A stretch of 60,096 nt of DNA from Girardia tigrina (lineage: Eukaryota), in contig MQRK01214937.1 of NCBI GenBank assembly GCA_001938485.1, forward strand, positions 1-60,096, read 5' to 3'. Position numbers and translations under genes: made by a program. This document shows, in pieces, positions 1,942 to 45,217 of the stretch. Position 1 is the first letter of the stretch; each line of letters begins with the position of its first letter. The notes under the pieces are model-generated. The model had not been told where the DNA came from. It made no database searches and worked only from the letters and a program-made list of their open reading frames with translations.

Positions 1942-3231
1942 CGTGGTGCGATCCCTAAGTCTTTAGACTTGTTGATAAATAAGATTATGACGTATATGCC
2001 GTTGATACTATAAATAGATGAGCTATCATTGGGTACAGATATGACTCACCATACCCAATCTGTATGTGTGAGTGGTGCGTACAGCCATTATTTCACTTTT
2101 TACAGTACACATGGACAGTAACGTCGAATATCGCAGCGTGATAAAATTTCTGCTCCTGCGCAATACTAAAAGCTTGGATATGTTGCAGCAGTTGCAGGAA
2201 GCTAACGGTGACCATCACATGCATTAGTGTATAATTGGATCAGAGACTTTAAACATGGCCGACAATCCGTTTTTGATGATGAGAGATTAGGACGACCGTG
2301 TGAAATTTTAACCGGGAAAAGTGATTTGTGTATGAAGATCGTGTCGGAAGAGAGACTAATAAGCATCCGTAAACTTGCACAGCGTCTATCCATCAGCTAC
2401 CATTCTACATATGATATTCTGCAATCATTTGGAGTTTGCAAACTGTGTTCACGTTTTGTTCCCCGATTCCTATCCGGTGAAATGTGCGACAAAAGTTTGC
2501 AGTGTTGCACTGCCAATTTGGAGTTGCTTCGCACTCATGGTTATCATTTTATCAACATATCATTACACAAGATGAAACCCCGGTGAGCTTGTATGTGCCT
2601 GAGAGCAAGCGTCAATCTTCTGAGTGGTACTTCCCCTGTGAAAGTGCTCCCAGAAAACTTCGAAGCGGCACCTTGCACAAGCTAGCAGCAATGATGACTG
2701 TGTTCTGGGATTCCCATGGCATTATTAAAATTGATTTCCTTGAGAAAGTACTTAAATGAATATTGAGTATTATGTTGAATTACTTCGCGATGTGAGAAAG
2801 TCTCATAGGAAGCCAAGAGGGATCCCATTGTGGTTCCTTCAAGACAATGCACCCATTCACACTTCGCGAGCAACTTTAACTGCTGTGAATGACTGTGGCT
2901 TTCAGTTTGTTTCACACCCCCCTATAGCCCTGACCTAGCCCCAAGTGATTTTGCTTTGTTTAAACACCGAAAGAAACATTTGAAAGGTGTCCACTTACAT
3001 TCAGTTGATGTACTCAAGGAGAAAGTCCTTGGTATTCTCAATTCTTTGCCTCCCAATTTTTTACAAAAATGCGTTCTCTGAGCTTGTTGCTCGCTGGCGC
3101 AAGTGTGTTGATGTACACGGCTCATACATTGAAAAATGATTTACTTTTATGTTATGTACTGATTCTAAAAAAATAAAGTTGATTGGACTTTGGTTTCTTG
3201 TCGAGTCTAAGGACTTATAGATCGCACCACG
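1942..3231 (+). mobile_element. Full-length mariner element (irritans-like), ~1.29 kb
   Basis: Imperfect ~28-bp TIRs (CGTGGTGCGATCCCTAAGTCTTTAGACT / AGTCTAAGGACTTATAGATCGCACCACG) flanked by TA on both sides. Confidence 0.92.
2111..3139 (+). pseudogene. Mariner transposase pseudogene (stops and frameshifts)
   Basis: Fragments across frames: VYNWIRDFKHGRQSVFDDERLGRP, RFVPRFL, IITQDET, MMTVFWDSHGII, LQDNAPIH, HPPYSPDLAPSDF. Confidence 0.9.
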
Positions 3232-4323: not shown

Positions 4324-5761
4324 TTAGGTTGGTCGAAAAATAATGGCGGTTTTTGAGCTTTATACTTTGTTTATCTACTTTGATATGTATATAAGTTTAA
4401 ATGCATTAGTGTTAGATATTATTTGAAATCTTATGNNNNNNNNNNNNNNNNNNNNNNNNNNNNNNNNNNNNNNNNNNNNNNNNNNNNNNNNNNNNNNNGT
4501 GCTAAATTAATAATGGAAAAAATTAAAATTCGAGCAATTTTCTTGTACGAATTTAAACTGGGTCGTAAAGCAGCAGAAACGGGTCGCAATATCAATAAAG
4601 CGTTTGGCAAGGGAACAACTTCTGAGCGCACAGTGCAACGATGGTTCCGAAAATTTTCTGATGGAGATGAAAACCTTGAAGATGAAGACGGTCGTGGTCG
4701 TGCAGTTGCTGTGAACAACGACAATTTGAGGACAATGGTGGAAACAGATCCCCGTACAACAATCAGAGAACTTGCAGATGGGTTGGGCATTAGTCAATCA
4801 ACAGTCCTGGATCATTTAAAACAACTTGAAAAAATCAAGAAACTTGATAAATGGGTTCCACATGATTTGAATGAAAATCAAAAGAACCGACGCTATGAAA
4901 TTTGTTCTGCCAATCANNNNNNNNNNNNNNNNNNNNNNNNNNNNNNNNNNNNNNNNNNNNNNNNNNNNNNNNNNNNNNNNNNNNNNNNNNNNNNNNNNNN
5001 NNNNNNNNNNNNNNNNNNNNNNNNNNNNNNNNNNNNNNNNNNNNNNNNNNNNNNNNNNNNNNNNNNNNNNNNNNNNNNNNNNNNNNNNNNNNNNNNNNNN
5101 NNNNNNNNNNNNNNNNNNNNNNNNNNNNNNNNNNNNNNNNNNNNNNNNNNNNNNNNNNNNNNNNNNNNNNNNNNNNNNNNNNNNNNNNNNNNNNNNNNNN
5201 NNNNNNNNNNNNNNNNNNNNNNNNNNNNNNNNNNNNNNNNNNNNNNNNNNNNNNNNNNNNNNNNNNNNNNNNNNNNNNNNNNNNNNNNNNNNNNNNNNNN
5301 NNNNNNNNNNNNNNNNNNNNNNNNNNGCATAAAAAATTGAAAACCCTTTGTCCGGGATTGGTCAATCGAAAAAGTCCCATCCTTCTTCATGATAACGCTA
5401 GACCTCATATTTCAAAAGTGACTATTCAAAAGCTTAATGAGTTGGTCTATGAAACCCTGCTTCATCCACCATATTCACCAGACCTCTCGCCAACAGACTT
5501 CTACTTTTTCAGGCATTTGTACAACTTCCTGCGTGAAAAAATTTTCAAAAACCAAAATGATGCTCAAAATGCCTTCCAAGAATTTGTCGCTTCGAGAACC
5601 GATGCATTTTATGCTGATGGAATAAAACAACTTGTTTCTCGTTGGCAAAAATGTATTGATGCCAACGGTTCATACTTTGATTAATAAACTTTTGTTTCTG
5701 TGAATTTGCACGTGTTTGAAGTTTGTGTCCCAAAACCGCCATTATTTTTCGACCAACTCAA
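4324..5761 (+). mobile_element. Mariner element (cecropia/Hsmar1-like), interrupted by assembly gaps
   Basis: TIRs TTAGGTTGGTCGAAAAATAATGGCGGTTTT / AAAACCGCCATTATTTTTCGACCAACTCAA with TA flanks. Confidence 0.93.
4513..5684 (+). CDS. Mariner transposase (middle hidden by N gap; integrity unknown)
   Basis: MEKIKIRAIFLYEFKLGRKAAET...WVPHDL, then after the gap LLHDNARPH, HPPYSPDLSPTDF and RWQKCIDANGSYFD*. Confidence 0.85.
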
Positions 5762-10340: not shown

Positions 10341-10581
10341 ATGTATAAATTTACAGATCCACATAAAATTTTACAGCGGACGTAAATTTATACGCTCAAC
10401 ATAAAATAATTTTTGTTCTACACAAAAAATATAATTAGTTTTCCATATTATTTAGAAACATATTTTTGCATAGTTCAATATGTGAGGAATATTTTGAATG
10501 ATGTGCTGATATTGTGCATGCAGAATGTTAATTTGGATTGTGCCTCTCCTACACAGATGGATGATTGATATTTTCTTTGAC

Positions 10582-11310
10582 ATGGCGACTTCACACCACG
10601 TGACTCCGAACATCAAAGGTCCAGAAACATTCGATGGATCCGAGCACAAGTTAGAAGAATTCCTGATAAGTTTTAACAGGTATTACAAGATTATGGGATT
10701 ATCAGAGGAGAGAAAAATCCTACTGGTAACACCCTACCTGACTCCAGATGCGATTCTGAGATACGAGAAGGCCCCAGGGAGTACTTGCAAAGAGAAAATG
10801 CGAGCAGCATTTTCAAAAGATAAATCTATTTTGGATTTGATGAAAGATCTCATTGAGTTAAGAGTAGGTTGCACTGACCCGTCACTTGCGTTCCGCAAAG
10901 CAGATGAGATAATCGAAAAATTAGTAGAAAAAAAGTTGGGTAAGAAAGAACTATCAAACTTGGTCTATGCTAATATGATTGATGATGATAACATCGATCA
11001 AGAGATAGCGATTCGAGGTGTAACAAAGGTAGAGGAAATCGAAAACATACAAATGAGGATGTATAAATACGGGAAAAAGAAAAGAAATTCACCGATTGCA
11101 GCATATAACACAAGAAAAGAAAACGATTGGAAAACGGTGGAGAATAAAAGAAGAACACCAAAACTACGGAACGACGAGGTAAAGAGAGACGGTAAGAGTC
11201 GAAACTATAAAGTCAGAAAAATAATTTGTTGATCATGCCATGAGGAAAGTCATGTTAGAAGAGAATGTCCGAACGTTAAGTGTAGTCACTGTCAAAGAAA
11301 AGAACATCAA
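10582..11310 (+). pseudogene. Gypsy-type gag with degenerate tandem zinc knuckles
   Basis: PETFDGSEHKLEEFL...YLTPDA, then C*SCHEESHVRREC and CSHCQRKEH after the stop at 11230. Confidence 0.8.
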
Positions 11311-16902: not shown

Positions 16903-17440
16903 TGTTAACGACACACAGTGACATTCTGTCAGATAAGACCCTCGGGAGTGCAACAATACTATAAATTACCAAGTGACATAACAATACCGCAAGTCTAATC
17001 CTACACGACAGAACACATCGCCTTAAGTTTCTAAAACAGAGATACATAACAGTGCAGCAAGTTTACAGGGAGACATAACATTGCCTCAAGTTTCCGAAAC
17101 ATAGACACACAACAGTGTAATGAGTTTTATATTATACAACAGTACCGTAAGTCTCATGCCACACAGAGATGGAGTATAAGTCATCCCCGAGCAACACTCC
17201 GCTAGGTGGGGGCCAATAGCCCATCCCATCTTTATTGGAACCCGATGGCCCTTCAGACTCGGCACTGCCAGGCAGATGTCGAGCGAGAAGAGGCGTCCGA
17301 TCCATAAATAAAGAGAATAGCGATATAGGTATTAGAATGAATTGTAAAAAATGTGAATCAAAATCGGGTTGTGGCTGACCCTTAATAGTCACTGGGGGCT
17401 CTGAGCACTTAAAACTGTTATGAACAAATGAGTCGTGACA
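16903..17440 (-). mobile_element. Solo-LTR-like element, family D, abutting the truncated 5' end of LTR A
   Basis: TGT at 16903 and CGTGACA at 17434-17440. The minus strand begins TGTCACG...CTCAGAGCCCCCA. It has an internal degenerate ~30-bp repeat array. Confidence 0.5.
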
Positions 17441-19277
17441 TTATTAAAGGAAGAAATTAATTAATAGACGCCCACGTATTCCTTGTTTAATTAATTGCAC
17501 TTGTTAATTATCCTTTTTCTGGGACACCTAAAGACTTTGATTTAACAAGGGTCCCTATTAAATTTCTGTAATGTTATACTTGCAGTAACATTTTTGGACA
17601 TGCAACGTATTATTTTTCATGAGAATGTCTTGTTTTTTGTTTGAGGAGTTTTGATTCTTGTATAAATATGTGCTCGATTTTTGTAAAAAAATAATAAAAA
17701 TAAACGTATTCCACATTTTGGACTCCATTTTTATGGTAAAATCTTTGTTTTATGGAGGATAGAGAGTTGAGGTTTTGATGGCCGCCGATCCGTCGACAGG
17801 TAACGGCAGGTGCTTTTATAGCCTGCCGCGACTGTTGACGATCTGGCAGCTGAAGATGAGTAATAACTCCCCAACACATTCGATAATATCACCATGAAGA
17901 ACTCAACTCGCTAACCTCTATCAACCTTTTTTCCTCTTTGTTTTTCTTTTGTGTTGATGGTTAAAGGAAATGTTCATCGTCATTGTCGCTCTTCTCTCTT
18001 AGGAATGCAAATTGCTCTCTTAGGTGAGCAAAAACGAGTCGCAGATTCTAGCCCTGTCTAAAGAAAATCAACGGCTCCTTCAGGAAATCCAGGTATTGAA
18101 GCAATCAAATGACCAAAAGGAGGCCCAATTATCGAGACTCAATGCGGAGTTTGAGGACTACAGAAGACAGTCAGTCCCAATGTCGGTACATTGACCCATG
18201 GTCAAAAATATGTTCAATCTCAACAAAGAAATAAACAACTTCAAATGAACGTTGATGAAGAGAGAACCCAACAAAATATTATGAGCTATCAACGTAAAAT
18301 GGTCCAACGAGTTTCTCAAGAGCACCCGGAGCTAATTGTTGAGGCGGCTAGGAACATAGAAACTAAGATAGTCGATGATCCAAGAAACAAACCTACAACC
18401 TCCAAATCAAGAGTTTACGCCTCAATAATAAGAGAATATATGGCATCCTCTTCTCCGAGCATCATCAGCCGAACATAGAAACGGCGAGAACAGAGGAAAC
18501 GAAAAGCCTAACTGGACCAACAAGCGCGAATTGAAGTGGAGGTTATCAAAACCCATACGCGTTTGGATACAGTGGTTGGAGAGCAAGAAATCCTGGACGA
18601 AGGTGGTTTCGATTTTGAGAGGATTGACCGATCGCCACAGCCCAGCATACATAATAAAATCGCCGTACCCCTTTTAAAGATTGGTATTGAAGAAGTAATC
18701 AGGAGGCAAAAATGGTTAGATTGGGAAGCCAAGTACAAAACATGGAAGGAAGGTCGAGACCGCCTATTGTACTGATCAATCACAACTGGTCAAAACGAAG
18801 AATTTGTGGTTTCGACCGACTCGGTTGATTAATGACGATGAACAGATTCTTCCTTTTTTATTTTTCTTTTGATTGATTAACAAATAGCAACATTTAGAAT
18901 TTGATTGCGTTTTTTCTCTTGTGGTCTATCTATAAAAATATAAAAGATAAAAATAAGTAGTCTAATCTAAATAACAAATAAATAATCAATTAAATTAGGT
19001 AATGATTCATAAATGAATGCAGCATATGATATTAAAGAACATAAAGACACAGAATTCCGATCGATAAAAAACAAACAAAATTTTCAATCATTAGGAACCC
19101 GGTAGATACTTGATTTTGTTCACTGGTGAAAGGATGGGAGCAGATGAACTTAATTGGGTATGGCATAGACCATATACCAACATCAGGAAGAGGTACCTGA
19201 TGGGGTTTATGCCAAAATTAATGTTGGAATTGAACCCATAATTAATTTATTTAAAATAAAATTTATTGAACCCAGTA
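17441..19277 (+). mobile_element. Family A LTR (lacking the first ~70-80 bp), 5' LTR position
   Basis: High identity to 34469-35121 + 40595-41831. It ends GAACCCAGTA (other copies CCCAACA/CCCAGCA) and is followed by a PBS. Confidence 0.85.
18005..18832 (+). pseudogene. LTR-encoded ~270-aa coiled-coil protein with Arg-rich motif (unknown family), disrupted copy
   Basis: ORFs 18191-18478 and 18536-18775 join into one frame when compared with 40595-41384. A splice acceptor (ctcttag) precedes it. Confidence 0.75.
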
Positions 19278-19286
19278 TATTATTTA

Positions 19287-19304
19287 TGGGGGCTCAGCTG
19301 GGAT
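19287..19304 (+). promoter_or_regulatory. Primer-binding site, tRNA-Pro-like (copy 1)
   Basis: TGGGGGCTCAGCTGGGAT matches 15/18 of the canonical tRNA-Pro PBS TGGGGGCTCGTCCGGGAT, after a 9-nt spacer from the LTR end. Confidence 0.75.
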
Positions 19305-19584
19305 TTGTTTAAACAATGAATTTTTGTTTTTTTTTTGAAGTAAAAGAATTACATGATAACATTTTTTTTGAGAAATTGCCGAAATTTTTATTTAGTCTAA
19401 TGAAAATTTCAGAAGGTTTTTTAATGATGGCATATGTATTGGAATTTATTCCACGTCAACGGACAATATTTGTGTGGGTTTTATTGTCTTTGGTCAGTGG
19501 AAAAATGGCAGTTAATTATTACAAATGGTACGTCGAAAACACCATCAAAATAAATTGAGAAAAGAAAAACCGAAAGATAAATTT

Positions 19585-19925
19585 GAACCTAAATAACAAA
19601 TAAATAATCAATTAAATTAGGTAAGGACTCATAAATGAATGCAATATATGATATTTAAGAAGAAAAATATACAGAATTCTGATAAAAAAAACAAACAAAA
19701 TTTTCAATCATTAGGAACCCCGTAGATACTTGATTTTGTTCACTGGTGAAAGGATGGGACCAGATGAACTTAATTGGGTATGGCATAGACCATATACCAA
19801 CATTAGGAAGAGGTACCTGATGGGATTTATGTTGAAATAATATGTTGAGATTGAACCCACAGTTACTTTAATTAAAATAAAATTTATTGAATCCAACATA
19901 TCATTTATGGGGGCTCAACTGGGAT
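19585..19925 (+). repeat. Family A LTR 3' fragment plus PBS (copy 2; PBS 19908-19925)
   Basis: Repeat of 18964-19304, ending ATCCAACA then TGGGGGCTCAACTGGGAT. Confidence 0.85.
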
Positions 19926-20221
19926 TTAATATATTTATAATTTCTAATTATATTATTTCTTTTTATTTAAAGACAAAGTTGGCTGCACTGATTTTGCTTG
20001 CAAATTTTTTATTTGAAAAGGAGTACTTAACCATGGTGGGATAACATTTTACATGACAAGTACGAAAATCAATAGGACAGTTTAATTGTTTTTTATATTT
20101 ATTGTACATGCGACCATTTAAAAACGATAAACGAGTAGTGTATTTTAAATTATGGGAAATATTTACAACTGATAAAATAAAATTCTGTAAAGATAGCGTT
20201 TAGGTAAAATTATAAATGTCC

Positions 20222-20472
20222 ATGGCTCATCATGTCCATTAGTTCATTCAAATCTGTATGCTTCCCTCTCTTCGGAGATATTCCAGTAAACTGCCCTTGC
20301 TCAACAGTTACGTTACAATATAGATGGGCTCATCCCTGCAAATGATATAAAGATTCACGAGATTTGCATGATTTAGTTTTTCTTTATTCGAGCATCTTTT
20401 AGGAATTCTTTCTTGGCCGTGGTATCAGGTTTAAGGTTTTCATAGCTACATCAATTGTTTTTTTCCACAGAC
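20222..20472 (-). pseudogene. Src/Frk-family tyrosine kinase exon (subdomains II-V), decayed
   Basis: After acceptor cgtttag the sequence reads [81 protein letters not shown], with three frameshifts and one stop. It is absent from the ORF track. Confidence 0.85.
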
Positions 20473-21389
20473 CTAAACGATTAAATACTAACACATATAA
20501 CAATAATTATGATTAGTAAAATAAAATGTAAATGGTAATCTTTAATGATATAGCATGACAATAGAACTTTCATATTATGAAACAAACAATAAAACTATCT
20601 ATAATTTCAAAAAAAATATTTGAAAGTACAAATAAATGTATAAAAACTGCATTTATTTATTTATTAATTATCTAAAAAGAAATTGTAAAATTAATTGATT
20701 TCTTACCTTTATCAGAACTTTCAAAACGTGGAGTGCCAATTCATTCATAACATATGTGAGGAGAAAGAGAAAAATCCCCATAGATATAATCCAAATAAAC
20801 GTCCCGCGTTTAAGTCGAAAGAAACTAACTGGAAAAATATAATAAATATAGAGAAAATATGATAAATTTAAATACCGTTGATTAATTACGGTTATTATAA
20901 AAATAATATAACAAATAAAACGAAATATAATACTCTATATTTTATAAATAAAATGTTACCTAAAGGAAAAGCGATACCCTTATGAAAAAGGAGAACAAAA
21001 ATAATTTTTTTTGATTTATTAAATTTCATTTATTTGAATTAACACATTAAACTATAATGAAAAAATATGTATATAATAAATAAACAAATAAATAAATTAT
21101 ACATATAATATGTTTAAAATTATACATAAAATATACATAAAATAAATTATAAAACACTAAATTGATGTAATCACATATTTTACTAAAACAATAAAGAACT
21201 CAAATCTTTCTTAATAAGATTTTCCGTAAAAGGTAAAGAATAAAATCATATTTTAAACAATTTTGAATACATGTCTTCCAAGAAAGTATAAGTTTTGAAA
21301 ATATATGTGAAATAATGAACAGAACATTTGAGAAAGGTTGCAACTTCCAGTTAAATAAACAGAAGTTTAATTATAGTTTAACAATTAAA

Positions 21390-21628
21390 TCGCCGTGAGT
21401 CGAGATTTTAAAGCTGAACTCGTGATGGCGGATACCTTTTAGAGAAAAAAAATCACCACGATATGAGGTAAAACTACTGAAAATCGTCATGGTGGATACA
21501 TTTAAGATATTAAAATTACCACGGAGAGCGGAAATTGAACCTGCGCGCCCGTAGATTTTTAGGATTGTTGGCCGGTCCAGATTTTGAGGATTTAGGAGGG
21601 AACAATAGGCCGTAACCGTTATGGTAGA
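21390..21628 (+). repeat. Structured leader block; diverged second copy at ~23670-23846
   Basis: aatcgtcatggtggataca...gcggaaattgaacctgcgcgccc...cgtaaccgttatggtaga occurs at both sites. Confidence 0.85.
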
Positions 21629-22341
21629 CATCCTGGTCGAAGGTGATTTCGATTTTAAGAGGATTGACCGATCGCCACAGCCCAGCATGGATAACACAAT
21701 TGCCGTACCCCTTTCAAAGATTGGTATTGAAGAAGTAATCAGGAGGCAAAAATGGTTAGATTGGGAAGCCAAGTACAAAACATAGAAGGAAGGTCGAGAC
21801 CGCCTTTTGTACCGATTAATCACAATTGGTCAAAACGAAGAATTTGTGGTTTCGTCCGACTCGGATGATTAATGACGATGAACAGATTCTTCCTGTTTAT
21901 TTTTATTTTGATTGATTAACAAATAACAATATTTAGAATTTGATTGCGTTTTTTCTCTTGTGGTCTATCTATAAAAATATAAAAGATAAAAATAAGTAGT
22001 CTAACCTAAATAACAAATAAATAATCAATTAAATTAGGTAAGGACTCATAAATGAATGTAATATATGATATTAAAGAACATAAAGATACAGAATTCCGAT
22101 CGATAAAAAACAAACAAAATTTTCAATCATTAGGAACCCGGTAGATACTTGATTTTGTTCACTGGTGAAAGGATGGGGCCAGTTGAACTTAATTTGGTAT
22201 GGCATAAACCATATACCAACATCAGGAAGAGGTACCTGATGGGGTTTATGCCAAAAGTAATATGTTGGAATTGAACCCATAATTAATTTAATTAAAATAA
22301 AATTTATTGAACCCAACATATTATTTATGGGGGCTCAGCTG
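21629..22341 (+). repeat. Family A LTR 3' portion (to 22318) plus PBS (copy 3, from 22328)
   Basis: Repeat of ~18590-19300, ending ACCCAACA then TGGGGGCTCAGCTG. Confidence 0.88.
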
Positions 22342-24738
22342 CGTTTAAAAAAAAGAACATTAATTTGTGTTATCTAACATTTCAAATTAATTATATCAAA
22401 AATATATATAAATGTATATTTCCCTTTTTTACTCCTTTACTCAATGAATTTCCTTAGAGCTTTTTGCTTTTGAAATCAAATTATAGATCCTAGATTGGAT
22501 TTAAATTATTCGAACATAATACAATAAATGTTTTCGATAAACAAAATTATAGCTGGAATTATTATTGTTCTGAGAACCATTAAAAATGACACTGAATCAG
22601 ATAATGATCCGTTATTACATAGAATTGAACACGTCCCGAAATAATTTATCTTCAATTATGATTTGCAATAGTATAAACGGGAATAATCTTTGTTCCATAA
22701 AACCAGCATTATTATGGTACGACAATTAGAAACAAATTCTTTACCTCTTGAAAATCTCAGCCTTTAAGACAAATCATATTTTTATTTAGTAAATACAAAT
22801 ATTCTGTTTGTTCGAGTTGCAATGTGATTTTTGTCGCTTTCATCAACCGATCCTTCGAAACATACACCAGAAAAGAGATCATTGCCACCGAATAATGGTA
22901 AGGAAGGATCGTTTCCACCGATAAATTATTGGGAAATATTATGAAGAAAATGAAATGAAGTATAAAGAAATAACATCTACGACAAGTCATTTGAGATTTG
23001 GTATTTTCTGTTCCATGTGAGATAATAAATAAATAAAGAGAAATCAATTAATCGTCGTTCTAGATTGGTACATTTTTATACACTAGAGTCGGATTTCGTT
23101 TACATTTTCCGATCGTGGATACTTGGCATTTAATGTTACACCAAGGTGTCGATTATCCAAAAAAATAAACAGACGAAAAACGATGATGATAATCATGAAA
23201 GACAGTAATAATGAAAATAATAGCTAATTTTAATTATTTATATTTCAAATTAAATCTCCCTTTGTAAAATAAAAAAAATGCGTAAAATAGGAATCATATT
23301 AACGCAATTTAATAATTAGTAATATAAAATGATAATATTTATCACTTATTAAAGGATACTATTACTTAGGGTAAAGTAAAAGGTATCATTAAATGGAATG
23401 ATCTAACATTTATTTCAAATAAAGGATGAGAGAAATAAAACCGAATTGGATCAAGTGTTTGAAAATAGAGAATAAGAAATACATATCTGTTTAAATATGA
23501 TAATTGTTGAAAAGCGGTAACAAAATTAGTTTAAAAATAATAATAATAAAAATAAAAAAATAATCTCCCATAAGTCTATTAAAGACAAAGACTTTACTAC
23601 CAAGAACGTCACGAAAACCACTTATGACCTCAAACTAAACGAAATAAAATTAAGATTATATATGATAAAATTACCACGATTGGATGTTGTAAAGCGAGAA
23701 TCGTCATGGTGGATACATTGGAATTAACGAAATTACCACGGAGTGCGGAAATTGAACCTGCGCGCCCTTAGATTTTTATGATTGTTGGCCGTTCCAGATT
23801 TTGAGAATTTAGGAGGCAACAATAGGTCGTAACCGTTATGGTAGATATATACTTTTGAAAACGAAAATGATATGATTAACCATCGATGATCCTACTAAGA
23901 GCAACTAAGTCGGACTTAGTGGTGAAGTAGCGGCGGATACTTGGTAAGGCCGGTTAGCGAAAATATCAACGAACACCACAGACAGATCATAATAATAATT
24001 CTTCCCCAGTAGGTGGACTCTGAAGACGGAGAAAAATAACGACTGATCAGATCTGTACTTCTAATAAAACCGAGAAGAATAAACAACCTCTTAAAATGAA
24101 CACAAAGGAATACAACAACACAATGATAAAGAAACACTTAGATAATAAATATTTCTTTTCCAGTAGGTGGATTCCGAAGAAGTGAAGAGAAAGAGTTATT
24201 TATGAAAAGCCACAATAAGAGCTTTTAACTGACAAATAAATAGCTTCAATTTACCAAAAGGTGTTTTAAAATAAAAAATGAATATAAAGTGATATCAGTC
24301 CTAATAAACAATTAACGAAAAAGAAAAGTACATAATTAGTCCATAAGAGAGAGAACCTGGATAAAGTGAATTATAGATATAATGTGTTTAACCCTCTTCC
24401 TTCGTTCCTTGCTTTATTTTTTGTTGTTTGTTTTACTTCCTTTTCTTTCTTTTTCTTTCAGTTTTAAAAGTTGGAAAGGAAGACGCGAATACAATAAGAT
24501 TTTTGTGGTTTTAGAAAAAGAAAAGGAAAATAACACAATCTCAAGAGAGCAAGTTGAATTAAAGAAGATAACTACCATAAATAACAAACGTCAATTTCTT
24601 TTCAAAAGCAAGATTGATCTTCGAAGTCGATTTGCTAAAACCCAAGCGAACCAAAAAATTACCCAATATTACGAGAAGAGACCGAATATAATTCTAGTGA
24701 ATTCAAGGAAATCATTGGTGCCAATGCATGTCATAGCA

Positions 24739-25150
24739 AGACGCATGCAGACGCATGTGGATGGTCTCCAATAGCTCGTTTTCAACGATTACCATTATAT
24801 CTTGAAGGAATTGCTCTTACTCTGTATGTAAACGAGTTGGAGAAAAGAACCATTTCTGATTTTGCAGTAGCAGTAACCTTTCTTAAAGGACAATTTTTAA
24901 CGTCAATGACACCAACACAAAGATATAATAAATTTATAAGAAGACGACAATTTCCCGAGGAATCGATTTTTGAATATGCAACTGAACTAAAGAGACTGGC
25001 TCAAAATGTCAATGTATCGGATAAACCTGAAGATGCAATAAAGGATGAGCAAATACTTGCTATATTTATGGGATGAATAAAAGATCGACGAACATCTAAT
25101 CATCTATATCTACAAAAACCTACATCCTTAAATACGGCCATATCTATGGA
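24739..25150 (+). pseudogene. Gypsy-type gag (capsid) fragment
   Basis: ADACGWSPIARFQRLPLYLEGIA...FLKGQF...RRRQFPEESIFEYATELKRLAQ...FMG*I...PTSLNTAI. Confidence 0.85.
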
Positions 25151-25185
25151 GTCAAGAAGATGAAGTATATAAAAAAGATAAACCA

Positions 25186-27420
25186 TTGTGGCAGATAGCA
25201 GAAATTTTACGAGATCATTGGACTGAAATGACGCAAGAAAGTGTTGATGCCACAAGGGAATTGATAATTCGAATATCGAAGGAATATCAAGTCGATCCAA
25301 GAAAACTTAAATATCATGATGGTACCACTGAATATGAATTGCATTGTAATGAGCGAATACTGACCAGAGAATTATATGAAATACTTGGAATTGATCCAAA
25401 AGGATCAGAAATACTACAATATGACAAAAGACCTATCCCAAGCAATGATAGACCAATAACCGAATATGATCTCTGGCAAAATTTGAAAAAGATTGTCCCA
25501 ATCTTGAGGAAGATGAGTCAAAATGACAACTGGAAAAATTTGCCGTATCCCGGAAACCAATATCATGACTGTATTCAATGTATAAAGATGTATAATGAGT
25601 TTATAAAGATAATAGTGGGGGAAATGAATGTTGAAGGATCACTGTCAGAGGATAATGGAGCTCGGCTGACTATTAAATTAATCATTTCAAACGTAGAATC
25701 GGCCTTTGACACAATCCCAAATGAAAGCTAAAGATATTTAATAAGTACTATCAAATTGAGGGAGAGCAACTACCAGAACTCTGTAAATTAATTTAGAAAT
25801 GCGAGGAAACAATTAAAGGAGTAGATAACCCTAGGACTTATCAATTATATGTTATCTTTCCAAATTTCAACAAGTATCATCTTAGCGAGTTACATAGTTT
25901 AAATACGAGAGAAATAATCCATGATTTAATTAACTTCTATAATATATCAGAGAAGACAGAATTTATGGTTGAGGATTATTAATTGTTTCACCTGAGAACA
26001 CCAATCCAGATGGGTAAAAACTTATTCGAAAATGGAATCTGGCCACATTGTGAGACTGAAATTTATCTTATTTCCGCACAAGAAATACTATTGCCAACGA
26101 TGGACTGGGAGTTGGAACTCTAAAAACTCAAAGTATTTGCTGCTTGCCTCAATATTGAGGATATTACCTATATAAAGAAATTTCATCAAGAACTAGGTAT
26201 TGCGGATAAAGTTTACAGCCAAATACTTGACATTTTACAAAACTTCCATCTTTTAACATTTGAATTGAGCAATATGGGAGAAATAATAAATCTTATTCAA
26301 GATTTACGGAATATAATTCCTGAAACAAAGCAACATGTAATAAATGAAATATTACAGAAATTTGCAAGGAACAAAACTTGTGAATTATTAAATCTATGGG
26401 TATATTTCCCCGATGAGACTGTCATCACAGTAGAGATATCCAGATCCACCGACAATGAAACACTCTACAAAATAATTTAAAAAATAATTGAAGAAAAAAC
26501 CAAAGACGAAGGGGAAATTGATTTCAAATTAGTGTATAATGGTACAAGAATCAAACGTAACAGTAAATTAGTTGTTAACAGTGGGCTATGGAATGGACGA
26601 AGATTATATGTATTGAATTGGAAAGATTTGGAAGAAGATTCTACCAGAAATGCTCGATTTTGTCGAGAAATGAATGAAAAATTTCAAAGGCTATATGGAA
26701 AATATGTTCAACCAGTAATAAAAAATCTTGGTGTATATAACAAAAAAGAAAACATTACAGAATGTTCAACAAAAGATTCCGAAGATATCCAGATAATATC
26801 CGAACAGTCATCAATGATAGAAATAAATACATTAGAGGAAAATAGAGATAAAAGTTTATCATCCCTCTGTATTGATGAAGACGAGAGATTAACGAAAGAA
26901 AATAACGATTTAAAACGAATTAAATTTCTCCTTTGTCATAACAAAATGAAGAAAGAGGAAATAATATCTATATTAACAGATTTAGACCCATTATTAGTGC
27001 CGTTACATGAGTTGAGGGTATTATTATACCTCTGTGAAAGATCAAAATTTATTCGAGAGTGGATACCTACTAGAATAGAGTTATTATTAGATATATGGAT
27101 TAGAAGGAAATAGAAACTGATGAAATAAAATATAAAATAAAGGTGGTAATGCTAACTAAAGAAAATAGTCAGACATTTACATTACCTATATATGCTACAA
27201 TTAATGATATTAAGCATTTATTACCATATAGAGATAATTATAACATAATAATTGATGGTAACCTTCATGAAAATGATGTTTATCTCGGTCTGACAAATTT
27301 GGATGAGGAAATCGAAAATGAAATAGAATTAGAATTACCGGAAAAACAGAAATGGTTATTAAAAGTATGGAACCCTCCACAAATGGAAGAAAATGGCACC
27401 GAAATAACTAATCAGAAATT
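25186..27420 (+). pseudogene. Accessory polyprotein region with about four ubiquitin-like (beta-grasp) domains
   Basis: Repeated ~70-80 aa units with ubiquitin-like pattern, e.g. NLWVYFPDETVITVEISRSTDNETLYKII*KII...FKLVYNGTRIKRNSKLVVNSGLWNGRRLYVL. Long reading frames are broken only by scattered stops and frameshifts. Confidence 0.55.
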
Positions 27421-27472
27421 TGAAGGAAAAAATTTTGAAGAAGTATTAAAGGCATCAAAAGGATCACCTTTG

Positions 27473-29300
27473 ATGACAATATTAATGATAATGTTGATTC
27501 TATTTTCAAATATTGCGAAGTTTAATGCATTTTATGGCTATGATTGTGATAATATGGAAATTGGAGCAAAGCAATATTCACTACTAGACACCGAAGACTG
27601 TCCAGAGGCCACGCCATCAACATTCATAAGTATTAGTAATAATACAATATATCACGTATATCAGGAATCACTTTATCAAACAGTGGCGATTAGAGAATGT
27701 AAAGTATTTAGAAGAAGATTTGCCTTCAACTGTGGATATCGCTCCTGGACATCAATAGTTAGTGATGGGTTAACAAAAGAAACAATTCATCTCACAAGAC
27801 AACAATGTGAAGACGGCTTTGTTACTAGAGAAATTAAAATTGAGGATTCAAGAGTAAGAGCCGTAAAAAAACGCAATCACGTATTCAAAAATCAATAGAG
27901 CAGGAAGAGTTACGTCAACGGCTGGCGATTGTGAAGAAGGTATATTTTCCTTGAATGGCGAAGTTGCGAAGCACATAGTAGTGATAGATACTTTCGAAGT
28001 AGAATTGAAAGAATTTAAAGGACATTTTGATGCCAATATGGGGGAAATGAAAACACACCATAAGTGTTTCACAAAAGACAGATCTTGCGAATATGGATCA
28101 TCAATATTGATTTATGATGTTAGAACGGAAGAATGCAACGTTGTGCTACTTAAAACAGCAACATTTGATGAATTTAAGTGACAAAATCTTAGAGAACCCG
28201 ATGATGAAGAAGTTATTGAAAGTCAAACCAGCCAAGAGGAAATTTAAAAAAAGGTTATTGGAAATAAAAGGAAAAGTGTACAATTGCAAGCTGAAGATAC
28301 TCCAACAGCCTTAATTACTAATAAAAAATAGGAATGGATGCACTTCATTAAAGGAGATCACTAAATGTGGGAGGCAAGTATTCAAAACAAATTACAGGGA
28401 GATTTATGTTAGTAGATATAAACTACCAACAATTTTTGGACAAATAAGTCCGGAAGATATGAATCATGAGTCCTATTTTAATAATAAAATGGAATTTCTG
28501 TACCATAGAGGTTTGTCAAATTTAGAACATACCTATTTCGACTTAATAAAAAATGATTGTAAACTAAATAAGGAATTACTGCGAACTAAATTAGCAATGT
28601 CAGTCACTAATGTCGATTTTATAGTACCTTTACCTCCTTTAAAACCTGCGGAATTTTGGAGAATTGTTGGAGAGGCTATGTTCATATACAAATGTGAAAA
28701 GGTAGTATTGAATATCATAGCAGAAAACACAGAATGTACAAATGAGTTGAAAATAAAACTCAAAGGACAAACTCGTTATGTCCAACCAATTACTAGACTA
28801 ATTTTACCAATAGAGTTCACACCTCTTAGAATAAACTGTTCAATAATAATGGCTCCTCTTTATAGAAATGACAACGGTAAATGGGTACGATTGCCAGATT
28901 TCCAACCTTTACTCACAGAACCACTACAATTTAGCTTAATGAAATTGGAAAAGGGTCGAAGATTTGAATCTATTAATATTAAAGATATTGGTTATTATAG
29001 TGATGTCGACTTTAAAAGAGCTAAAAAACATATATTTTTCCCTATAGCAAGGAATCAAATTATTTCTAAAATAATACATACGGTAGCATCAGACATGGCA
29101 GGGTATCAGAAACCTGATTTTGAACTGTTACTTTCACCGGATCATTTTTCAAAAGCAGCTCATAATGTAATGGAAAGACTATGGGGGAAATTCATTATTT
29201 TTGGTCAAGCAGCTTCAGGAGTATTAGCTATTATTATCATGTGAAGTATGATAAAAACTATAATAGCTCAATTATTGGCGTGTTTTGACGTCTACAAAGA
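27473..29300 (+). pseudogene. env: Envelope glycoprotein, chuvirus-G / herpes gB-like (class III fusogen), disrupted
   Basis: Signal-like MTILMIMLILFSNIA, then GYDC...YSLLDTEDC, FNCG, QQC, C(K)LNKELL, GEAMFIYKC, CTNEL, QPITRLI, NCS..MAPLY, WGKFIIFG and a C-terminal TM segment. Confidence 0.82.
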
Positions 29301-29757
29301 TGTTGGGTATTTGATTAGCATTTGATTTGAACACAAAATCAGAAGGATTTGTTTGGTGTTTGGCGCTCAATTACCTAACCTAACGTTTAAACTCGATGAA
29401 CTCTTTGACTCCAATAAATAACAAAGCTTCTTCAATAATCGTTTATTTCAAATTACAATTACAGTCTTGAGCAAAGGTTTGTACAACTTTTGAATGATTG
29501 GAGGCGAGAATATAAGGTGCTATACAGCTTAAAGATATAAATAAAATCTAAGATCCTATACAGGAATTATTGAAATATTTTGCTTTTCCGATTTTTATTT
29601 TTTGTTTGAGTTTTATTTTTTATTTTTTATTTTCTTTTTTATAAATACAAATATTGCTCTATTTATACTAAAGCTTAATTACAAATATATAAAATATAAT
29701 TTTATTTTTTTTAAAATAAAATTAAAAAAAATTTTGTTAAAATTATTTATTTATAAA

Positions 29758-29900
29758 GGACATTAAGGCCGTCAACAAAATTAATTAGGTCATTAAGGCC
29801 GTATTGAATTTCATTCTAGGCCATTAAGGCCATCATCTAAACCCATTAGGCCATTACGGCCGTCAATTTATTTTGCTTCAAGATTAATGGCCTAATGGCC
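29758..29900. repeat. ~30-bp-period array of GGCCATTAAGGCC-like motifs (possible DNA-transposon subterminal repeats)
   Basis: Four direct units (cattaaggccgt, cattaaggccgt, cattaaggccat, cattacggccgt) plus an inverted ggcctaatggcc. Confidence 0.65.
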
Positions 29901-30005
29901 AATTTTTATTGGTCGGCTGTTAAGCCGATGCAACAAAAAGAGAAATATTCCCTAAATTTTGTCATTATTTTTCATTTTTTTTAAAAGTAAGCTATTTTTT
30001 TAATT

Positions 30006-30073
30006 ATATAAATATATATATATNNNNNNNNNNNNNNNNNNNNNNNNNNNNNNNNNNNNNNNNNNNNNNNNNN

Positions 30074-30123
<50 letters not shown>
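30006..30123. repeat. (TA)n microsatellite spanning a gap
   Basis: Seen directly in the sequence. Confidence 0.95.
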
Positions 30124-30128
<5 letters not shown>

Positions 30129-30745
30129 ATATTTTTTTGCAAGCTAAAACAATAGGATCCCAAAATTCAGAAACGTTCCGGGAATGAGGCGATAGTTCCT
30201 CATTCCCAGGATTGATCGAAAATGGATCCTCAAGCATCCTTTGTTTTTTTTTATTTATTTATTTTTTTTATATATAATATTTCCAAATTACCGTATGGTA
30301 TATAATTTATTTATTATTCTTTATTTATATGAATATATATATTTTTTAAAACATAACCTCAACAAATCTTCCCCTTTTAATAAATATTGTCCTCAATATT
30401 ATCCTTTTTTCTTTAACAAAAAAATAATAATAGAAATTAAAACTAAAGTTTATTAAATAAAATTAAAGTTTTCTTTTTTTTGTGTTTGTTTTTCAATTTC
30501 CATGTAATTATTTGTCCATCTTTCGCTTCATATTCAATTTCTTCGGTACGTCTCTTGAAGGTTTTTCCATTGACGATGAGCTTCGAATAGATTATCTGCG
30601 CATTTTTGTCTGGGGAAACCTCCGTAGTAACGTTCTTCGCAATTGATAATTTGCTTTTCTTGATCTGTTGAATTTCCGCTTTTTGTTGTTCTAAATTTCC
30701 TTCTGCTGATGGGTTTTCATTAAATAATTTTTCAATCGATAACTC

Positions 30746-31489
30746 TTACTCCCATATTTCAATTTCAGGAGTATTATCATCTAAGTCGACTGAGTTTTCA
30801 TTCCAGGCCTGAAGAATGTTTTCAATTGGATCTTTCCAGCCACTGTTGACATTGTTTTGATCCAACACTGTACTAGATGGATTTAAATTTTTGTCCAAAG
30901 AATCCACTGTCAAAATTGGATTTATCCTTTCCACTACATCTGGAGGGTGCTGAGATGATGTTGAAGGTATTCCGGAGTTGAAATCATCGATGAATTCATC
31001 CTCGATTTTCCGATAAATGTCATACACAGCTCGTGCATCCTCCTGTGAATTGTGCTTTCCCGGTCTTTGAATTTCTTTACCCAGAAGAACGGATGCGACA
31101 TCCTGCAACTTATTGTATTGACCTTCTCCCTTTGGGTACATATTCCATTTTTCCAGCGCTCTTGCGGTTGCCAAGTCTCTTATACCCAGTAGAGACTTCT
31201 TGTCGATGCACAGATGTGTGACTTCCATCTGTAAATCGTGTCCAACAAGGATTTTTCCCTTGCAGATTTCTCTGATTCTTTTAAGGATGTCATACTCATC
31301 CAGCTGCCTCCGAAGCTGTCTTTCTGTAAGTCCATGGACTTTGGTACCTAATTGTTCAATTCGATGTCTTGGAGTGATCAAGCAATCTATAACGGTTTTT
31401 CCTTCCTTGTTCAATATTGTAACCGACACTGACACTCTCGAATTGTCAGCCATTTTACACGAGAATTCAGCATCTAAAAACAATAAGTG
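30746..31489 (-). CDS. DEDDh 3'-5' exonuclease (REX4/ISG20/RNase T-like) carried by the retroelement; part of a longer decayed ORF (~32180-30500)
   Basis: LFLDAEF (ExoI), TKVHGLT, KILVGHDLQME (ExoII), IRDLA, KLQDVASVLLGKEIQ and HNSQEDARAVYDIY (ExoIII). Confidence 0.88.
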   Translation of the reverse strand, partial: HLLFLDAEFSCKMADNSRVSVSVTILNKEGKTVIDCLITPRHRIEQLGTKVHGLTERQLRRQLDEYDILKRIREICKGKILVGHDLQMEVTHLCIDKKSLLGIRDLATARALEKWNMYPKGEGQYNKLQDVASVLLGKEIQRPGKHNSQEDARAVYDIYRKIEDEFIDDFNSGIPSTSSQHPPDVVERINPILTVDSLDKNLNPSSTVLDQNNVNSGWKDPIENILQAWNENSVDLDDNTPEIEIWE

Positions 31490-32029
31490 TTGTCTTATTT
31501 CCTATTTCTCCAAATGTTTTCGGATAAAGCTTTTCCGGTGATTAAAATCCTTTTCGGTTGGGTTATAGACAGAACCAACTAGATGACCTTCATCTTTATA
31601 TAATTTCGGATTATAATTGGCCTTTGGGTATTATCTGTATTCGACCGCAACGATAGCCGGTCGATCCGCAGCTTGTATAAAAAGGTTTTTGTCATCGACA
31701 GTTATGCGCCATTTTGACGATCGAGCACCGAATTGATAGACTTCTCCTTGTTGAAAACCTTTACGAGTTCAGCGGCAATATGTAGTTCAATGTCGCCATT
31801 GGACATTTCGTAACATATGTCTGAGATCATTTTGGATTGATTGTTGAAAATTAATTCAAGGTAGATCTCCATTTCGAAATCCGTTGTCCGAATATAATTA
31901 GGGAAAGCAAGATTGTCACGGAGTCACCTTTTGAATTGTCCCGTTCGAGTACTCAACATGTTGCAAAATTCCACATAGATTTTGCCGGATCTCGTAGTCG
32001 ATTTTTGAAGCATTGACTGTTTCATTGGT

Positions 32030-32173
32030 TTGATGGATCTGGATTGAATTGGATTGATGGATCTGGATTGAACTTGATTGATGGATCTGAATTGAACTGG
32101 ATTGATGGATCTGGATTGAACTTGATTGATGGATCTGAATTGAACTGGATTGATGGATCTGGATTGAATTGGA
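32030..32173 (-). repeat. 6 x 24-bp tandem repeat, probably coding ([PQ][IV]Q[SF]RSIN)
   Basis: Units TTGATGGATCTG(G/A)ATTGAA(T/C)T(G/T)GA read in frame into KPMKQSMLQKSTTRSGKIYVEFCN. Confidence 0.88.
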
Positions 32174-32539
32174 AAACGTGAGATTGTTTGAAAATTTTCT
32201 TATTAAAATTTTTTTGGCAAAATTTATTACGTTATATAGTATATATATATATTAAATTTATTATTGATTTTTTTTTAAAAAATTAAAGAGAAATTTTTCT
32301 CTCCTCCAATCATGATACATATTGTTTTTGTACTTTATGAAAATACAGATGGCACAACGAGATAAAATAAAATAAAATAAGATAAAATAAAATAAAATGT
32401 CACTAAATACAATAAATTAAGTGTTACTTTCGTCGTTTTTATACCAGCGTTGACAGGACCTCTGCACTCCTTTCAGGTTCAAGATGATCCTTTGCAACAC
32501 AAGATTTGATATAAAGAATTGCTCTACGTAGGAAAATTA

Positions 32540-33630
32540 GACAGGTGATGATGATTGTCGCAGATACGACAATAGATAAGAATAAAAGTTTAGTTTAATG
32601 ATCAAAAGACTTTCATTTTTTGTAACAGTAATGTTCGATTGCATTTTCAGATTTTTAGAAGAAGAGAGTGTAATTGGTGATTGTTTGACTGTTGAGGGCT
32701 TGCTTTTATTAACGAAGGTAGAAGGTATCATAAGCTTCTTGAGATCAACGAGAGTAGTTCTCCAACAATTGTCACTTTTGAAGAATGATACATATAGAAG
32801 TTTGATGGCATATTCTTCTCCATAATTTAGATCTCTGACGACTTATCTTGTTATTGATTGATTTAATATTATCATATATTCGATTCCCATAAAGGTTGAG
32901 GATATGATTACTTTTTCATTTTTTTGTGATTTTCTGTAAAACTGTATTGAATTCTTCATTATAGTAATTTTAACTTGGTTTGTCAGATTAATGATATCCA
33001 TTGTATAACTTTCAGCATAAACAAGGTTCCAATGTTGCATTGAATATTGTTGATCATTGTCTATATACGCTTCAGAATATGTTATGTTAAATACATATTG
33101 TTTATTAATTTCCAGATTATCGATCTTGAGAAACTTAGTTGGATACATTATTTTTTTAGAGAAAAGATTGGAATCCTTTGATACTTTATAATGATTTTTA
33201 TCAATTTGTTTGATTTTAGGTTGATACTGACACTCAACCATGTAGGGTCGATGGTCAGCATTTTGGACCATCTCTTTGTCCAAACAGCCATGACCGTAAT
33301 ATATTGCGGTTCAACTCCAGTGGAGTTTTCATTCTCCCAGTATTTGATTCGAAATGTATAGGGGTGATTAATTTTTAAATCTCGCATTATAACTGTTTTT
33401 ATTGTATTTTTTTAACATTATATGATTTGAAGATTACCCTTCTCTAGTGTTGACTGAAATATTTCAATTAAATTACATTGACAATTCCAAATTATCATAT
33501 TATAGGATGAGAAAACCTTTAACTGATTCAGCATTGGTAATTCCGTTTTTGCAGGAAAATAATTAACATTTTGAGCTTGGGATAAAGGTATGGTAAGCCA
33601 ACAAATCCACGGGATAATTGATAGATAATT
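32540..33630 (-). pseudogene. Accessory secreted/membrane ORF downstream of integrase, with FnIII-like beta strands
   Basis: Signal-like YLSIIPWICWLTIPLSQA, then the repeated motif DLKINHPYTFRIKY / NLEINKQYVFNITY. Confidence 0.4.
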
Positions 33631-33659
33631 GTAATTTTTACTTTTCTTTGGTTTATCCA

Positions 33660-34200
33660 TTTTTTGATTCTCATTTTTCTCACAAACTCTGTACGGTCCT
33701 TTGTACGGTCTTTTTAATTTAGCCGAAATGCCCTTTTTCGGTTCTGGTTTGTGCAAATAAACCAAACCTCCAATTTTCAAATCATGATCTTTAGCCTTCT
33801 TGTCGTAAGCTTCTTTGTATTCTTCTTGATTATATTTGATCTTTAAACCTGCTTTTTCCCAAGCTAATTGCATTCTTTCTTGCATTAACATTTTATAATT
33901 AGGAACTTCGACGGAATGAGTTTCTGGTTGTTGATAATTCAAATTAATAGGCATATTGTTTTTTCGTAGGTACATTAGATAAAAAGGTGTTTCTTGTGTG
34001 CTGGGATGCACAGCATTATTATAAGCATAAACACATGGTTTCAAATGAACGTCCCAATCAGTTTGTCCATCATTAACATAAGACTCAATCATGTTCAGTA
34101 TTGTTCCATTAAATCTTTCGACAAGTCCATCAGTTTGAGGAAGATAAGCCGATGTATTAATTTTTGTTATTGAAAAATAGTCTGTAACACATTTGAAAAA
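33660..34200 (-). pseudogene. Gypsy integrase core C-terminal half and GPY/F domain
   Basis: TSAYLPQTDGLVERFNGTI, WDVHL, YAYNNAVHPSTQETPFYLMY, KLKRPYKGPYRV. Confidence 0.93.
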
Positions 34201-34468: not shown

Positions 34469-35121
34469 TGTTGGGATCCCAGGATTTGCTTGGGCGTCAA
34501 TTTTAATTATTTAATTAATTGATTAATTGTAATGACCTAATTAATGGACGAAATTAATTAATAGACGCCCACGCATTCCTTGTTTAATTAATTGCATTTA
34601 TTAATTATCTTTTTTCCGGGACACATAAAGCCTTTGATTTGACAAGGGTCCCTATTAAATTTCTGTAAGGTTATACTTTCAGTAACATTTTGGACATGCA
34701 ACGTATTCTATTTCATGAGAATGTCTTGTTTTTGGTTTGATTAGTTTTGATTCTTGTATAAATATGTGCTCGATTTTTGTAATGTTATAATAAAAAATAA
34801 ACGTATTACACATTTTTGGACTCTGTTTTTGGTAAAATTTTTTGTTTTGTGGAGGACGGAGAGTTGAGGTTTTGATGGTCGCCGATCTGTCGACAGGTAA
34901 CGGCAGGTGCTTTTAGTGCCTGCCGCGTCTGTTGACGATCTGGCAACTGAAGAGGATGTAATACTCTCCAAAACATTTTATAATATCACCTGAAGAACTC
35001 AACTCACCAACCTCTGTCAACCTCTTTCTTTTTGTTTTTCTTTTGTGTTGATGCTTAAAAGAAATGTTCATCGTCATTATCATTCTTCTCTTTTAGGAAT
35101 GCAAATTATGTTGAGCAAAAC
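34469..35121 (+). mobile_element. Family A 3' LTR, left part
   Basis: Starts TGTTGGGATCC, the inverse of the LTR end. Matches 17441-18030 and breaks at GCAAAAC. Confidence 0.87.
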
Positions 35122-39890: not shown

Positions 39891-40594
39891 CATAAATAAT
39901 ATTACTTTTAATAATAACATTAATAATACAATTATAATAATAATTTAAAAATAAAATAATAATGATAATAATAATAATCAAATAATAATTATATAAATTT
40001 TTATTAAGTCAATCCTTTGGCGAACTTCTCCGCCCAAAGCAGGAGTACCCTCATAATGAATGGGTCCCTGCGGAGGAAAGAAAAACTCGCCGTAAAGGAA
40101 TATAATAATTTTAATTTCAAGAATACTAATAATAATATAATAAAAATAATTATGAAAGTGATAAAATTAATAATTATTAACAATAATTATAATAGTAATT
40201 ACACTAATAATAATAATAATTAAATAAATGATTATAAAAATAATATTATTAATTATAGCAATATTATTTATATTCATAATAATTTAGATTCTAATAATTT
40301 TAGTAATAATAATAATATAATAAAAATAAATAAAAATAAAATTAATGATGTTATAATAAATTTTCATTAAGATTTATATATATTTCTTTATTATTATTAT
40401 CCCAATTAACTGCCTCGCGTCCCTGAGCAACCTGCTCAAACAAAGGGAAGGTTAAAATGGGATTATCCGTCCTGTTTATTAGATTTATTTATTTGATTTA
40501 TTTATTTATTATTTTTTAAATTTTTTATTTAGGACAACGGGTACGCTTATTTATATATTTTATATTTTTCATATTTACAGAATCCCAACAAAAC

Positions 40595-44906: not shown

Positions 44907-45217
44907 TATATAAACCTTTCTTTTTTGTTTGTAGGCAAAAGGTTTGTTTCTTCTATAGTCAAGCGATGGAAGATGGGAGTTCAGAAACGTTAATAACCAC
45001 CGATGAGTTGACGGACAACGGCAGGTGTTTATATTGTCTGCCGAGACTGTTGACGAGCTGGTAGTGAAAATGAAAATTTCACATCATAAACGTTTGAAAT
45101 ATCATTGTCGTTCATAAATTGAGTTCTCTAATTTCTATAATTTTTTGTTTCGTTTGTTACATAAAACAATAAATAAATAGCTTGTCACTCGTAATTATTG
45201 TTTTTCTTCAGAAATGA

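Follow-up and report, generated by a model that had tools for sequence, protein, structure and literature searches.

Cis-acting signals for genome dimerisation and packaging have been mapped in retroviruses and in the yeast elements Ty1 and Ty3 (for Ty3, e.g. PMC11381356). Retroviral dimer sites are palindromes; that of HIV-1, in SL1, lies upstream of the major splice donor, and the dimer begins there as a kissing interaction (PMC516450, PMC12789967). The Psi signal of RSV is also upstream of the splice donor (PMC5035971), and HIV NC attaches to G that is unpaired or in weak pairs, a weak G-U helix being bound first (PMC7395439). In Ty3 RNA, dimerisation goes through a palindrome of 6 nt close to the 5' end (PMC11381356), and the packaging signal of the coronavirus MHV is made of repeated bulge motifs (PMC8206606). 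Among Ty3/gypsy elements of animals, gB-type errantiviruses with the order GAG-ENV-POL are known from nematodes, bryozoans and flatworms (PMC13524379), and the related nematode element Cer1 encodes its own export protein, CERV (PMC10309623). The literature searched describes no dimerisation or packaging signals for env-carrying Ty3/gypsy elements of animals; the words 'leader' and 'UTR' are absent from the main text of PMC13524379, and 'stem-loop', 'RRE' and 'response element' from that of PMC10309623.

The stretch of DNA analysed here (the window; 60,096 nucleotides from Girardia tigrina) holds a decayed, rearranged LTR element, the main parts of which are as follows:

17436..19277, plus strand: family A LTR (about 1.84 kb), carrying a broken copy of a basic ORF
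21626..22319, plus strand: 3' part of an LTR fused directly to a terminal hairpin unit; a rearrangement junction, matching 18586 onward
22328..22345, plus strand: primer-binding site (PBS) of the tRNA-Pro(UGG) type, with more copies at 19287 and 19908
24540..25160, plus strand: broken gag; an intact copy, which has Retrotrans_gag and CCHC knuckles, is 68% identical to it
27149..29244, plus strand: broken env, a Monjiviricetes (chuvirus-like) fusion glycoprotein (PF24664)

The LTR limits (about 17436-19277) are given by end-to-end matches in two copies from genome G000, and the PBS is complementary to tRNA-Pro(UGG) genes of the same genome. Several short contigs (L052, L053) carry these tRNA genes as tandem copies about 646 bp apart. 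The domains of the intact gag copy are Retrotrans_gag and zf-CCHC. LTR, PBS, gag and a gB/chuvirus-type env, the features of env-carrying Ty3/gypsy elements (errantiviruses of the gB type), are thus all present, and judging by these features the element belongs to a Ty3/gypsy family that carries an env of the chuvirus/gB type and uses tRNA-Pro as primer. It shares with gB-type errantiviruses and Cer1 a Ty3/gypsy gag bearing CCHC knuckles, with an env of the chuvirus/gB type behind it (PMC13524379, PMC10309623), but differs from HSV/gB-type errantiviruses and Cer1 in having an ORF inside the LTR and a Gag ORF of more than 1100 codons. The latter contains three CCHC-type knuckles (L265, 3590-7039; L327, 71-3385, minus strand), and its long C-terminal extension matches no Pfam family (L265, L327). 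No pol was found behind env in the stretches read; one copy (L335) continues past the gag region to RNase H and integrase, and from their sequences many of the copies could be non-autonomous. This family may figure in the element tables of PMC13524379.

The window contains further traces of mobile DNA. A second family A LTR is split (34533-35107 and 40589-41829), with about 5.5 kb of other sequence between its parts. On the minus strand, 30746-34092 carries an integrase-like ORF (recognised by eye, with no Pfam hit) and then an ORF for an RNase T-type exonuclease (PF00929); a 24-bp tandem repeat occupies 32002-32193. The start of a mariner-like transposase (by eye, partly N) lies at 4513-5340, and a gag-like ORF with no Pfam hit at 10525-11232.

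The subject of this analysis is a block of hairpins at 21390-21628, part of which recurs in the leader that continues to gag:

21391..21430, plus strand: short hairpin unit 1, of a divergent type, its lower stem altered on both strands relative to the other units
21454..21494, plus strand: short hairpin unit 2
21517..21626, plus strand: terminal unit, with closing stem and bulge as in the short units; a predicted rod with a 16-bp G-U-rich helix
21543..21548, plus strand: GCGCGC, a self-complementary hexamer placed by prediction in a bulge of 6-7 nt; candidate site of dimer initiation
23672..23711, plus strand: short hairpin unit in the leader continuing to gag
23734..23843, plus strand: terminal unit, with the hexamer GCGCGC at 23760-23765

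The three stems of the first copy, proposed in the initial annotation, were confirmed base by base, with a GA(U/C)A tail behind each, and the recurrence that it had placed at about 23670-23846 resolves into unit 2 (23672-23711) and unit 3 (23734-23843). The 'loop' of the third stem is a structured insert of 91 nt. Unit 1 occurs as a whole only at 21391-21430, though its 5' arm is seen again in one other contig (L305). The 21390-21628 copy has no gag behind it, since it runs at the 21626 junction into the middle of an LTR (equivalent to 18586); it is a rearranged fragment, and the leader upstream of it, which has one other copy in the genome, is unlike that before 23672.

The units had been described as sharing a 3-nt UNA bulge. 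A bulge is indeed present, but the 3' strand reads U-N-A-U, and a register with N-A-U bulged is equally possible; minimum free energy structures from ViennaRNA mostly take the latter, the two registers lying about 0.1 kcal/mol apart in most terminal units. Among 45 distinct short units, the first position of the bulge is U in 42, the second is variable and the third is A in all 45. An AUG spans bulge and stem in every short unit, and in the terminal units of the window as well, with G at -3 and +4, and the unit AUGs of the window stand at 21425, 21489, 21621, 23706 and 23838. The uORFs that begin at these AUGs run for 5-145 codons, and the lack of conservation in length speaks against a uORF function. 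The folding energy of 21380-21640 is unremarkable (z = -0.29), and the five window units fold at z = -0.3 to -2.3. As folding energy alone is not striking, support for the hairpins comes from the comparison of copies.

Copies were sought by DNA search (40 of 116 candidates scored, with at least 72 matches) and with the pattern YRCCRY-N16-40-GYNATGGYRGAYA, an approach by which diverged families may have been missed. In G000 the pattern matched 254 times and its reversed control 17 times, and 90 of the 100 matches listed are family units by eye. Two abundant families of pattern matches proved to be unrelated repeats (six loci read). The copies form three subfamilies, A, B and C (labels assigned from heuristic motifs), in which 0-6 short units are followed by one terminal unit, some copies thus having no short units. 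Short units are spaced at about 60-62 nt in B and C, and at 89 nt in many A copies. In most subfamily B loci that reach that far, the first unit lies 151-165 nt past the LTR end/PBS, and in subfamily A 0.85-2.1 kb of variable sequence separates the LTR end/PBS from the array; in subfamily C, the sequence upstream of the arrays showed no LTR. The A and B leaders align mainly over 23664-24033, at about 79%, with the flanking leader largely unalignable.

As an independent test, 30 loci were picked by gag similarity; nine with less than 1 kb upstream were set aside. The remaining 21 hold the whole terminal unit in 16 cases and part of the block in two, and are interrupted by other sequence in three. 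The terminal unit stands 834-890 nt before the gag ORF in 14 of the 16 loci that hold it whole, four of the 16 being on contigs that the hairpin search had already given. The possibility that the block belongs to an unrelated repeat, raised in the initial annotation, does not hold: the block is part of the LTR-element family and lies in the 5' leader, downstream of the PBS and ahead of gag, the location expected of a dimerisation or packaging signal.

DNA contigs from three sequencing runs (X1-X3) contained just the three known subfamily variants, and no relatives were found beyond these and G000 in metagenomes and viral contigs. There the pattern gave 120 metagenome and 13 viral-contig hits. 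When 93 of these 133 loci were scored with a covariance model, they reached at most 24 bits with one hit each, against 50-65 bits for the window units, from which the model itself had been built; given the low scores and the single hit per locus, we regard these hits as chance. A search with Gag gave no relatives among longer proteins or viral contigs. In a distant LTR family (ORF identity 35-38%) no unit was present in 11 stretches, none of which was seen to include a leader. An Rfam scan of 17500-30500 returned three matches (E 0.42-2.2), none of which reached the gathering score or fell on the block, and hammerhead, k-turn, IRE, SECIS and spliced-leader readings were rejected by eye, the core residues of these motifs being missing in most unit types. 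Neither Rfam nor the open-access literature searched holds a prior description of the block.

Across the 45 distinct short units, 98.0% of cells are paired, compared with 92.7% in shuffles and 22-60% when the strands are slid. Both sides are altered in 38 cells (0 of 500 shuffles), a count that overstates the number of events because all copies are related: the rows derive from about five short-unit types in three subfamilies, and independent events are few. A-U/G-C swaps are found at two upper-stem pairs, in 15 and 21 rows, and the lower stem of unit 1 is altered on both strands. The earlier observation that stems are retained while loops diverge is thus borne out in other copies, where pairing is kept through double changes. 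The terminal unit (28 rows) forms an irregular rod, 96.5% paired, the 16-bp helix of which is 94.2% paired despite many substitutions, with three doubly changed pairs, not above shuffles (mean 3.4). A branched alternative fold was rejected, being 5-22 kcal/mol worse in all 28 rows and more poorly paired; one of its pairs shows three pair types, and this branched fold is at most a possible minor state. G-U pairs outnumber A-C pairs by 15 to 1 and by 122 to 4 (137 to 5 in total), an excess which points to plus-strand RNA rather than to a DNA palindrome. In subfamily B, the G-U helix no longer has its G-rich side. On the strength of these comparisons, we conclude that the hairpin block is a real, base-pair-conserved RNA element.

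Within the terminal unit, RNAalifold leaves columns 31-36 unpaired, and these are exactly the hexamer, with the sequence GCGCGC in subfamilies A and C, GCAUGC in subfamily B. No other of the 116 hexamer windows is a palindrome in all three subfamilies (24 of 28 rows for this one; next best 15). Of 50 distinct copies, possibly including alleles, 41 have the palindrome perfect and nine have one or two changes. A self-complementary sequence is therefore conserved as a palindrome, as expected of a dimerisation or packaging signal, in two variants that are one double change apart. The dimer-site palindrome of HIV-1 subtype B is also GCGCGC. The hexamer lies in a predicted side bulge, not in an apical loop; in single-sequence folds it is partly open, and in the 23734 copy mostly paired (probability unpaired 0.02-0.21). 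CpG decay was considered as the cause of the hexamer change and rejected, as CpG loss is not raised here (5/320 vs 33/1212); with CpG sites not decaying faster, methylation does not explain the swap. As the change is one event (B versus A and C), the palindrome may still be a coincidence; for two transitions inside a hexamer, we estimate that chance alone would give such an outcome in about 1 case in 5.

Downstream of the terminal unit are two further stems:

23891..23949, plus strand: predicted helix (23891-23899 with 23940-23949) over a candidate 5' splice site (GT at 23944)
23974..24016, plus strand: related CCAC/GUGG stem around a candidate 3' splice site (AG ending at 24009)

The helix over the candidate donor is 97.7% paired, with one A-U/G-C swap. 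A GT-AAG donor-like site, followed 57-67 nt further (35 in one) by a pyrimidine tract/CAG, is found in 28 of 44 downstream stretches, with four having the donor only and 12 falling outside the strict pattern. The candidate mini-intron of the window (23944-24009) is 66 nt long, and further strong acceptor-like tracts precede gag at 24163 and 24461. A CTAAT branch-like motif is present downstream of the block in subfamily C.

The order PBS, hairpins, palindrome, covered candidate donor, further stems and gag parallels that of retroviral leaders (HIV-1 DIS-SD-Psi, RSV Psi, the MMTV/MPMV palindromes), which share with this block the location between PBS and gag, a GC-rich self-complementary hexamer upstream of a helix-covered (here candidate) donor, a weak G-U-rich helix and a partner Gag with CCHC knuckles. 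Differences are that the hexamer here lies in a predicted side bulge and is preceded by 0-6 tandem near-identical hairpins, and that the host is a Ty3/gypsy element, known here from sequence alone. By analogy, the block likely works like a retroviral dimerisation and packaging leader in a modular, variable-copy form. The more specific reading, that it is the genome dimerisation and packaging signal of the element with repeated sites for Gag, we regard as evenly balanced between true and false. The initial annotation had proposed a multimeric protein-binding or packaging signal, and the place between PBS and gag fits this part of its proposal, the comparison with HIV-1 TAR that went with it finding no support (see below). 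It had included neither the palindromic hexamer of unit 3 nor the donor stem downstream; with both found here, the reading moves towards dimerisation and packaging.

Under the dimerisation and packaging reading, each short unit would display, in plus-strand genomic RNA, a common basal helix, a bulge and an unpaired GAUAC tail, together forming a site, repeated along the array, to which the zinc knuckles of Gag would bind. The hexamer of the terminal rod would then pair with the hexamer of a second genome to start the dimer, and the next stem would conceal the splice donor, so that unspliced RNA is favoured. Unit number, which likely changes by template slippage or unequal recombination, would tune the count of bound Gag molecules. 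The dimer sites of Ty3 (DS/PAL6) and Ty1 are similar in that they too belong to LTR retrotransposon RNA and consist of a 6-nt palindrome near the 5' end (for Ty3, PMC11381356). However, PAL6 of Ty3 is in an apical loop near the GAG start, and no tandem hairpin array is reported in the relevant sections of that paper (PMC11381356). The packaging signal of embecoviruses such as MHV is also a repeated stem-bulge motif of variable copy number, proposed to provide sites for a structural protein, but its repeats are 2-nt bulges stacked in a single stem within the coding region of an RNA virus (PMC8206606), whereas the units described here are separate hairpins in a retroelement leader, with no sequence relation to it.

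The neighbouring candidate splice sites bring up another reading, which we consider unlikely though well worth keeping in view: the hairpins could be bound by RNA-binding proteins of the host that govern whether unspliced RNA is spliced, exported from the nucleus, localised or translated, in the manner of a CTE or a transport signal, with the palindrome incidental. The block lies directly 5' of the conserved candidate donor/acceptor pair, the donor being covered by a helix, and there is precedent for such binding in that structured RNAs of MPMV bind NXF1 directly (PMC10309623). An array upstream of a donor in use would, however, be present in spliced and unspliced RNA alike, making it a poor export element. 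Likewise, the AUG in its G-flanked context in every short unit would suit a role in translation, but the lengths of the uORFs are unconserved. This reading also leaves the palindrome unexplained, and no Rfam match comes near its gathering score.

A third reading, put forward in the initial annotation, takes the array as a response element for the basic protein encoded in the LTR, so that protein and RNA would work together as in Rev/Rex or Tat systems. Some copies carry an intact LTR ORF (310 aa, open in L220 at 1390-2322, minus strand); in the window the ORF is broken, at about 17900-18830 and 40590-41380. The protein has at least 150 matches in G000 and no Pfam match above cut-off, and a database search returned just two near-identical unnamed proteins. 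Its Arg/Lys-rich stretch and acidic end are kept in the LTR family that is 35-38% identical (258 aa; L248, 1192-1968, plus strand); the basic stretch could be no more than a nuclear localisation signal. CERV of Cer1 offers a precedent for an element with its own export protein (PMC10309623). A test of the array's co-occurrence with family A LTRs had been suggested. In subfamily A the two do occur together, the LTR ORF being upstream of the array in all three family A copies that span both, but in subfamily B, with arrays of up to six short units, the ORF is absent from all three copies with more than 5 kb upstream; supply in trans would be a possible way round this.

The response-element reading also drew on a likeness to HIV-1 TAR, which has a 3-nt bulge starting with U between two helices, with a purine before it (PMC6189040). 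The arginine sandwich of TAR involves a triple formed by a bulged pyrimidine (U:A-U or C+:G-C) with the second pair after the bulge, together with a G in the first pair and a purine before the bulge; in TAR itself, the pair that the bulge U caps is an A-U two steps on, next to G26 (PMC6189040). This arrangement is kept in neither register of the bulge here: in the UNA register the following pairs are U-A and then G-C, and in the slid register a U precedes the bulge, the first base of which is U in 33, C in 11 and G in one of the 45 units. In addition, and unlike TAR, the units have no conserved apical loop, and the block lies outside the LTR, 0.15-2.1 kb past the PBS. It is also upstream of the candidate donor. 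We therefore consider a response element for the LTR protein improbable.

A GC-rich long hairpin (-40.7 kcal/mol) lies within the LTR at 17775-17850, and again at 34872-34946 and 44990-45064. It is in tandem in L025 and L044, one subfamily B LTR has about five repeats of it, and the distant LTR family retains it too (matches of about 80% in L247-L254). Being stronger and better placed than the leader units, it is the better candidate for a TAR-like, or pre-miRNA-like, element, which also counts against the array as the response element.

That the array is a minisatellite without function, arising by slippage from one chance inverted repeat, would account for unit numbers varying from none to six and for the modest folding z-scores of the window, but is very improbable and, as far as sequence comparison goes, already largely refuted by covariation, since stems change on both sides while loops diverge, G-U exceeds A-C on one strand only, and the block is a conserved island in an otherwise unalignable leader.

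Returning to dimerisation and packaging, the reading that we prefer, the family is a compact candidate with natural variation for a signal of this kind. The two palindrome variants predict that A and C genomes pair together, but not with B, and the series of 0-6 units provides a natural dose series for Gag binding. A bolder synthesis, which we put forward as a long shot, would have an invertebrate Ty3/gypsy virus with a leader in the style of complex retroviruses: an accordion of identical protein-binding hairpins that tunes activity, a subfamily-specific kissing palindrome that blocks co-packaging of A/C with B, and an Arg-rich hairpin reader, encoded in the LTR, that acts in trans on subfamilies lacking it. 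If the dimerisation and packaging reading is true, dimerisation by a kissing palindrome upstream of a hidden donor would reach the errantiviruses of metazoans, in a modular repeat design without counterpart in the literature searched.
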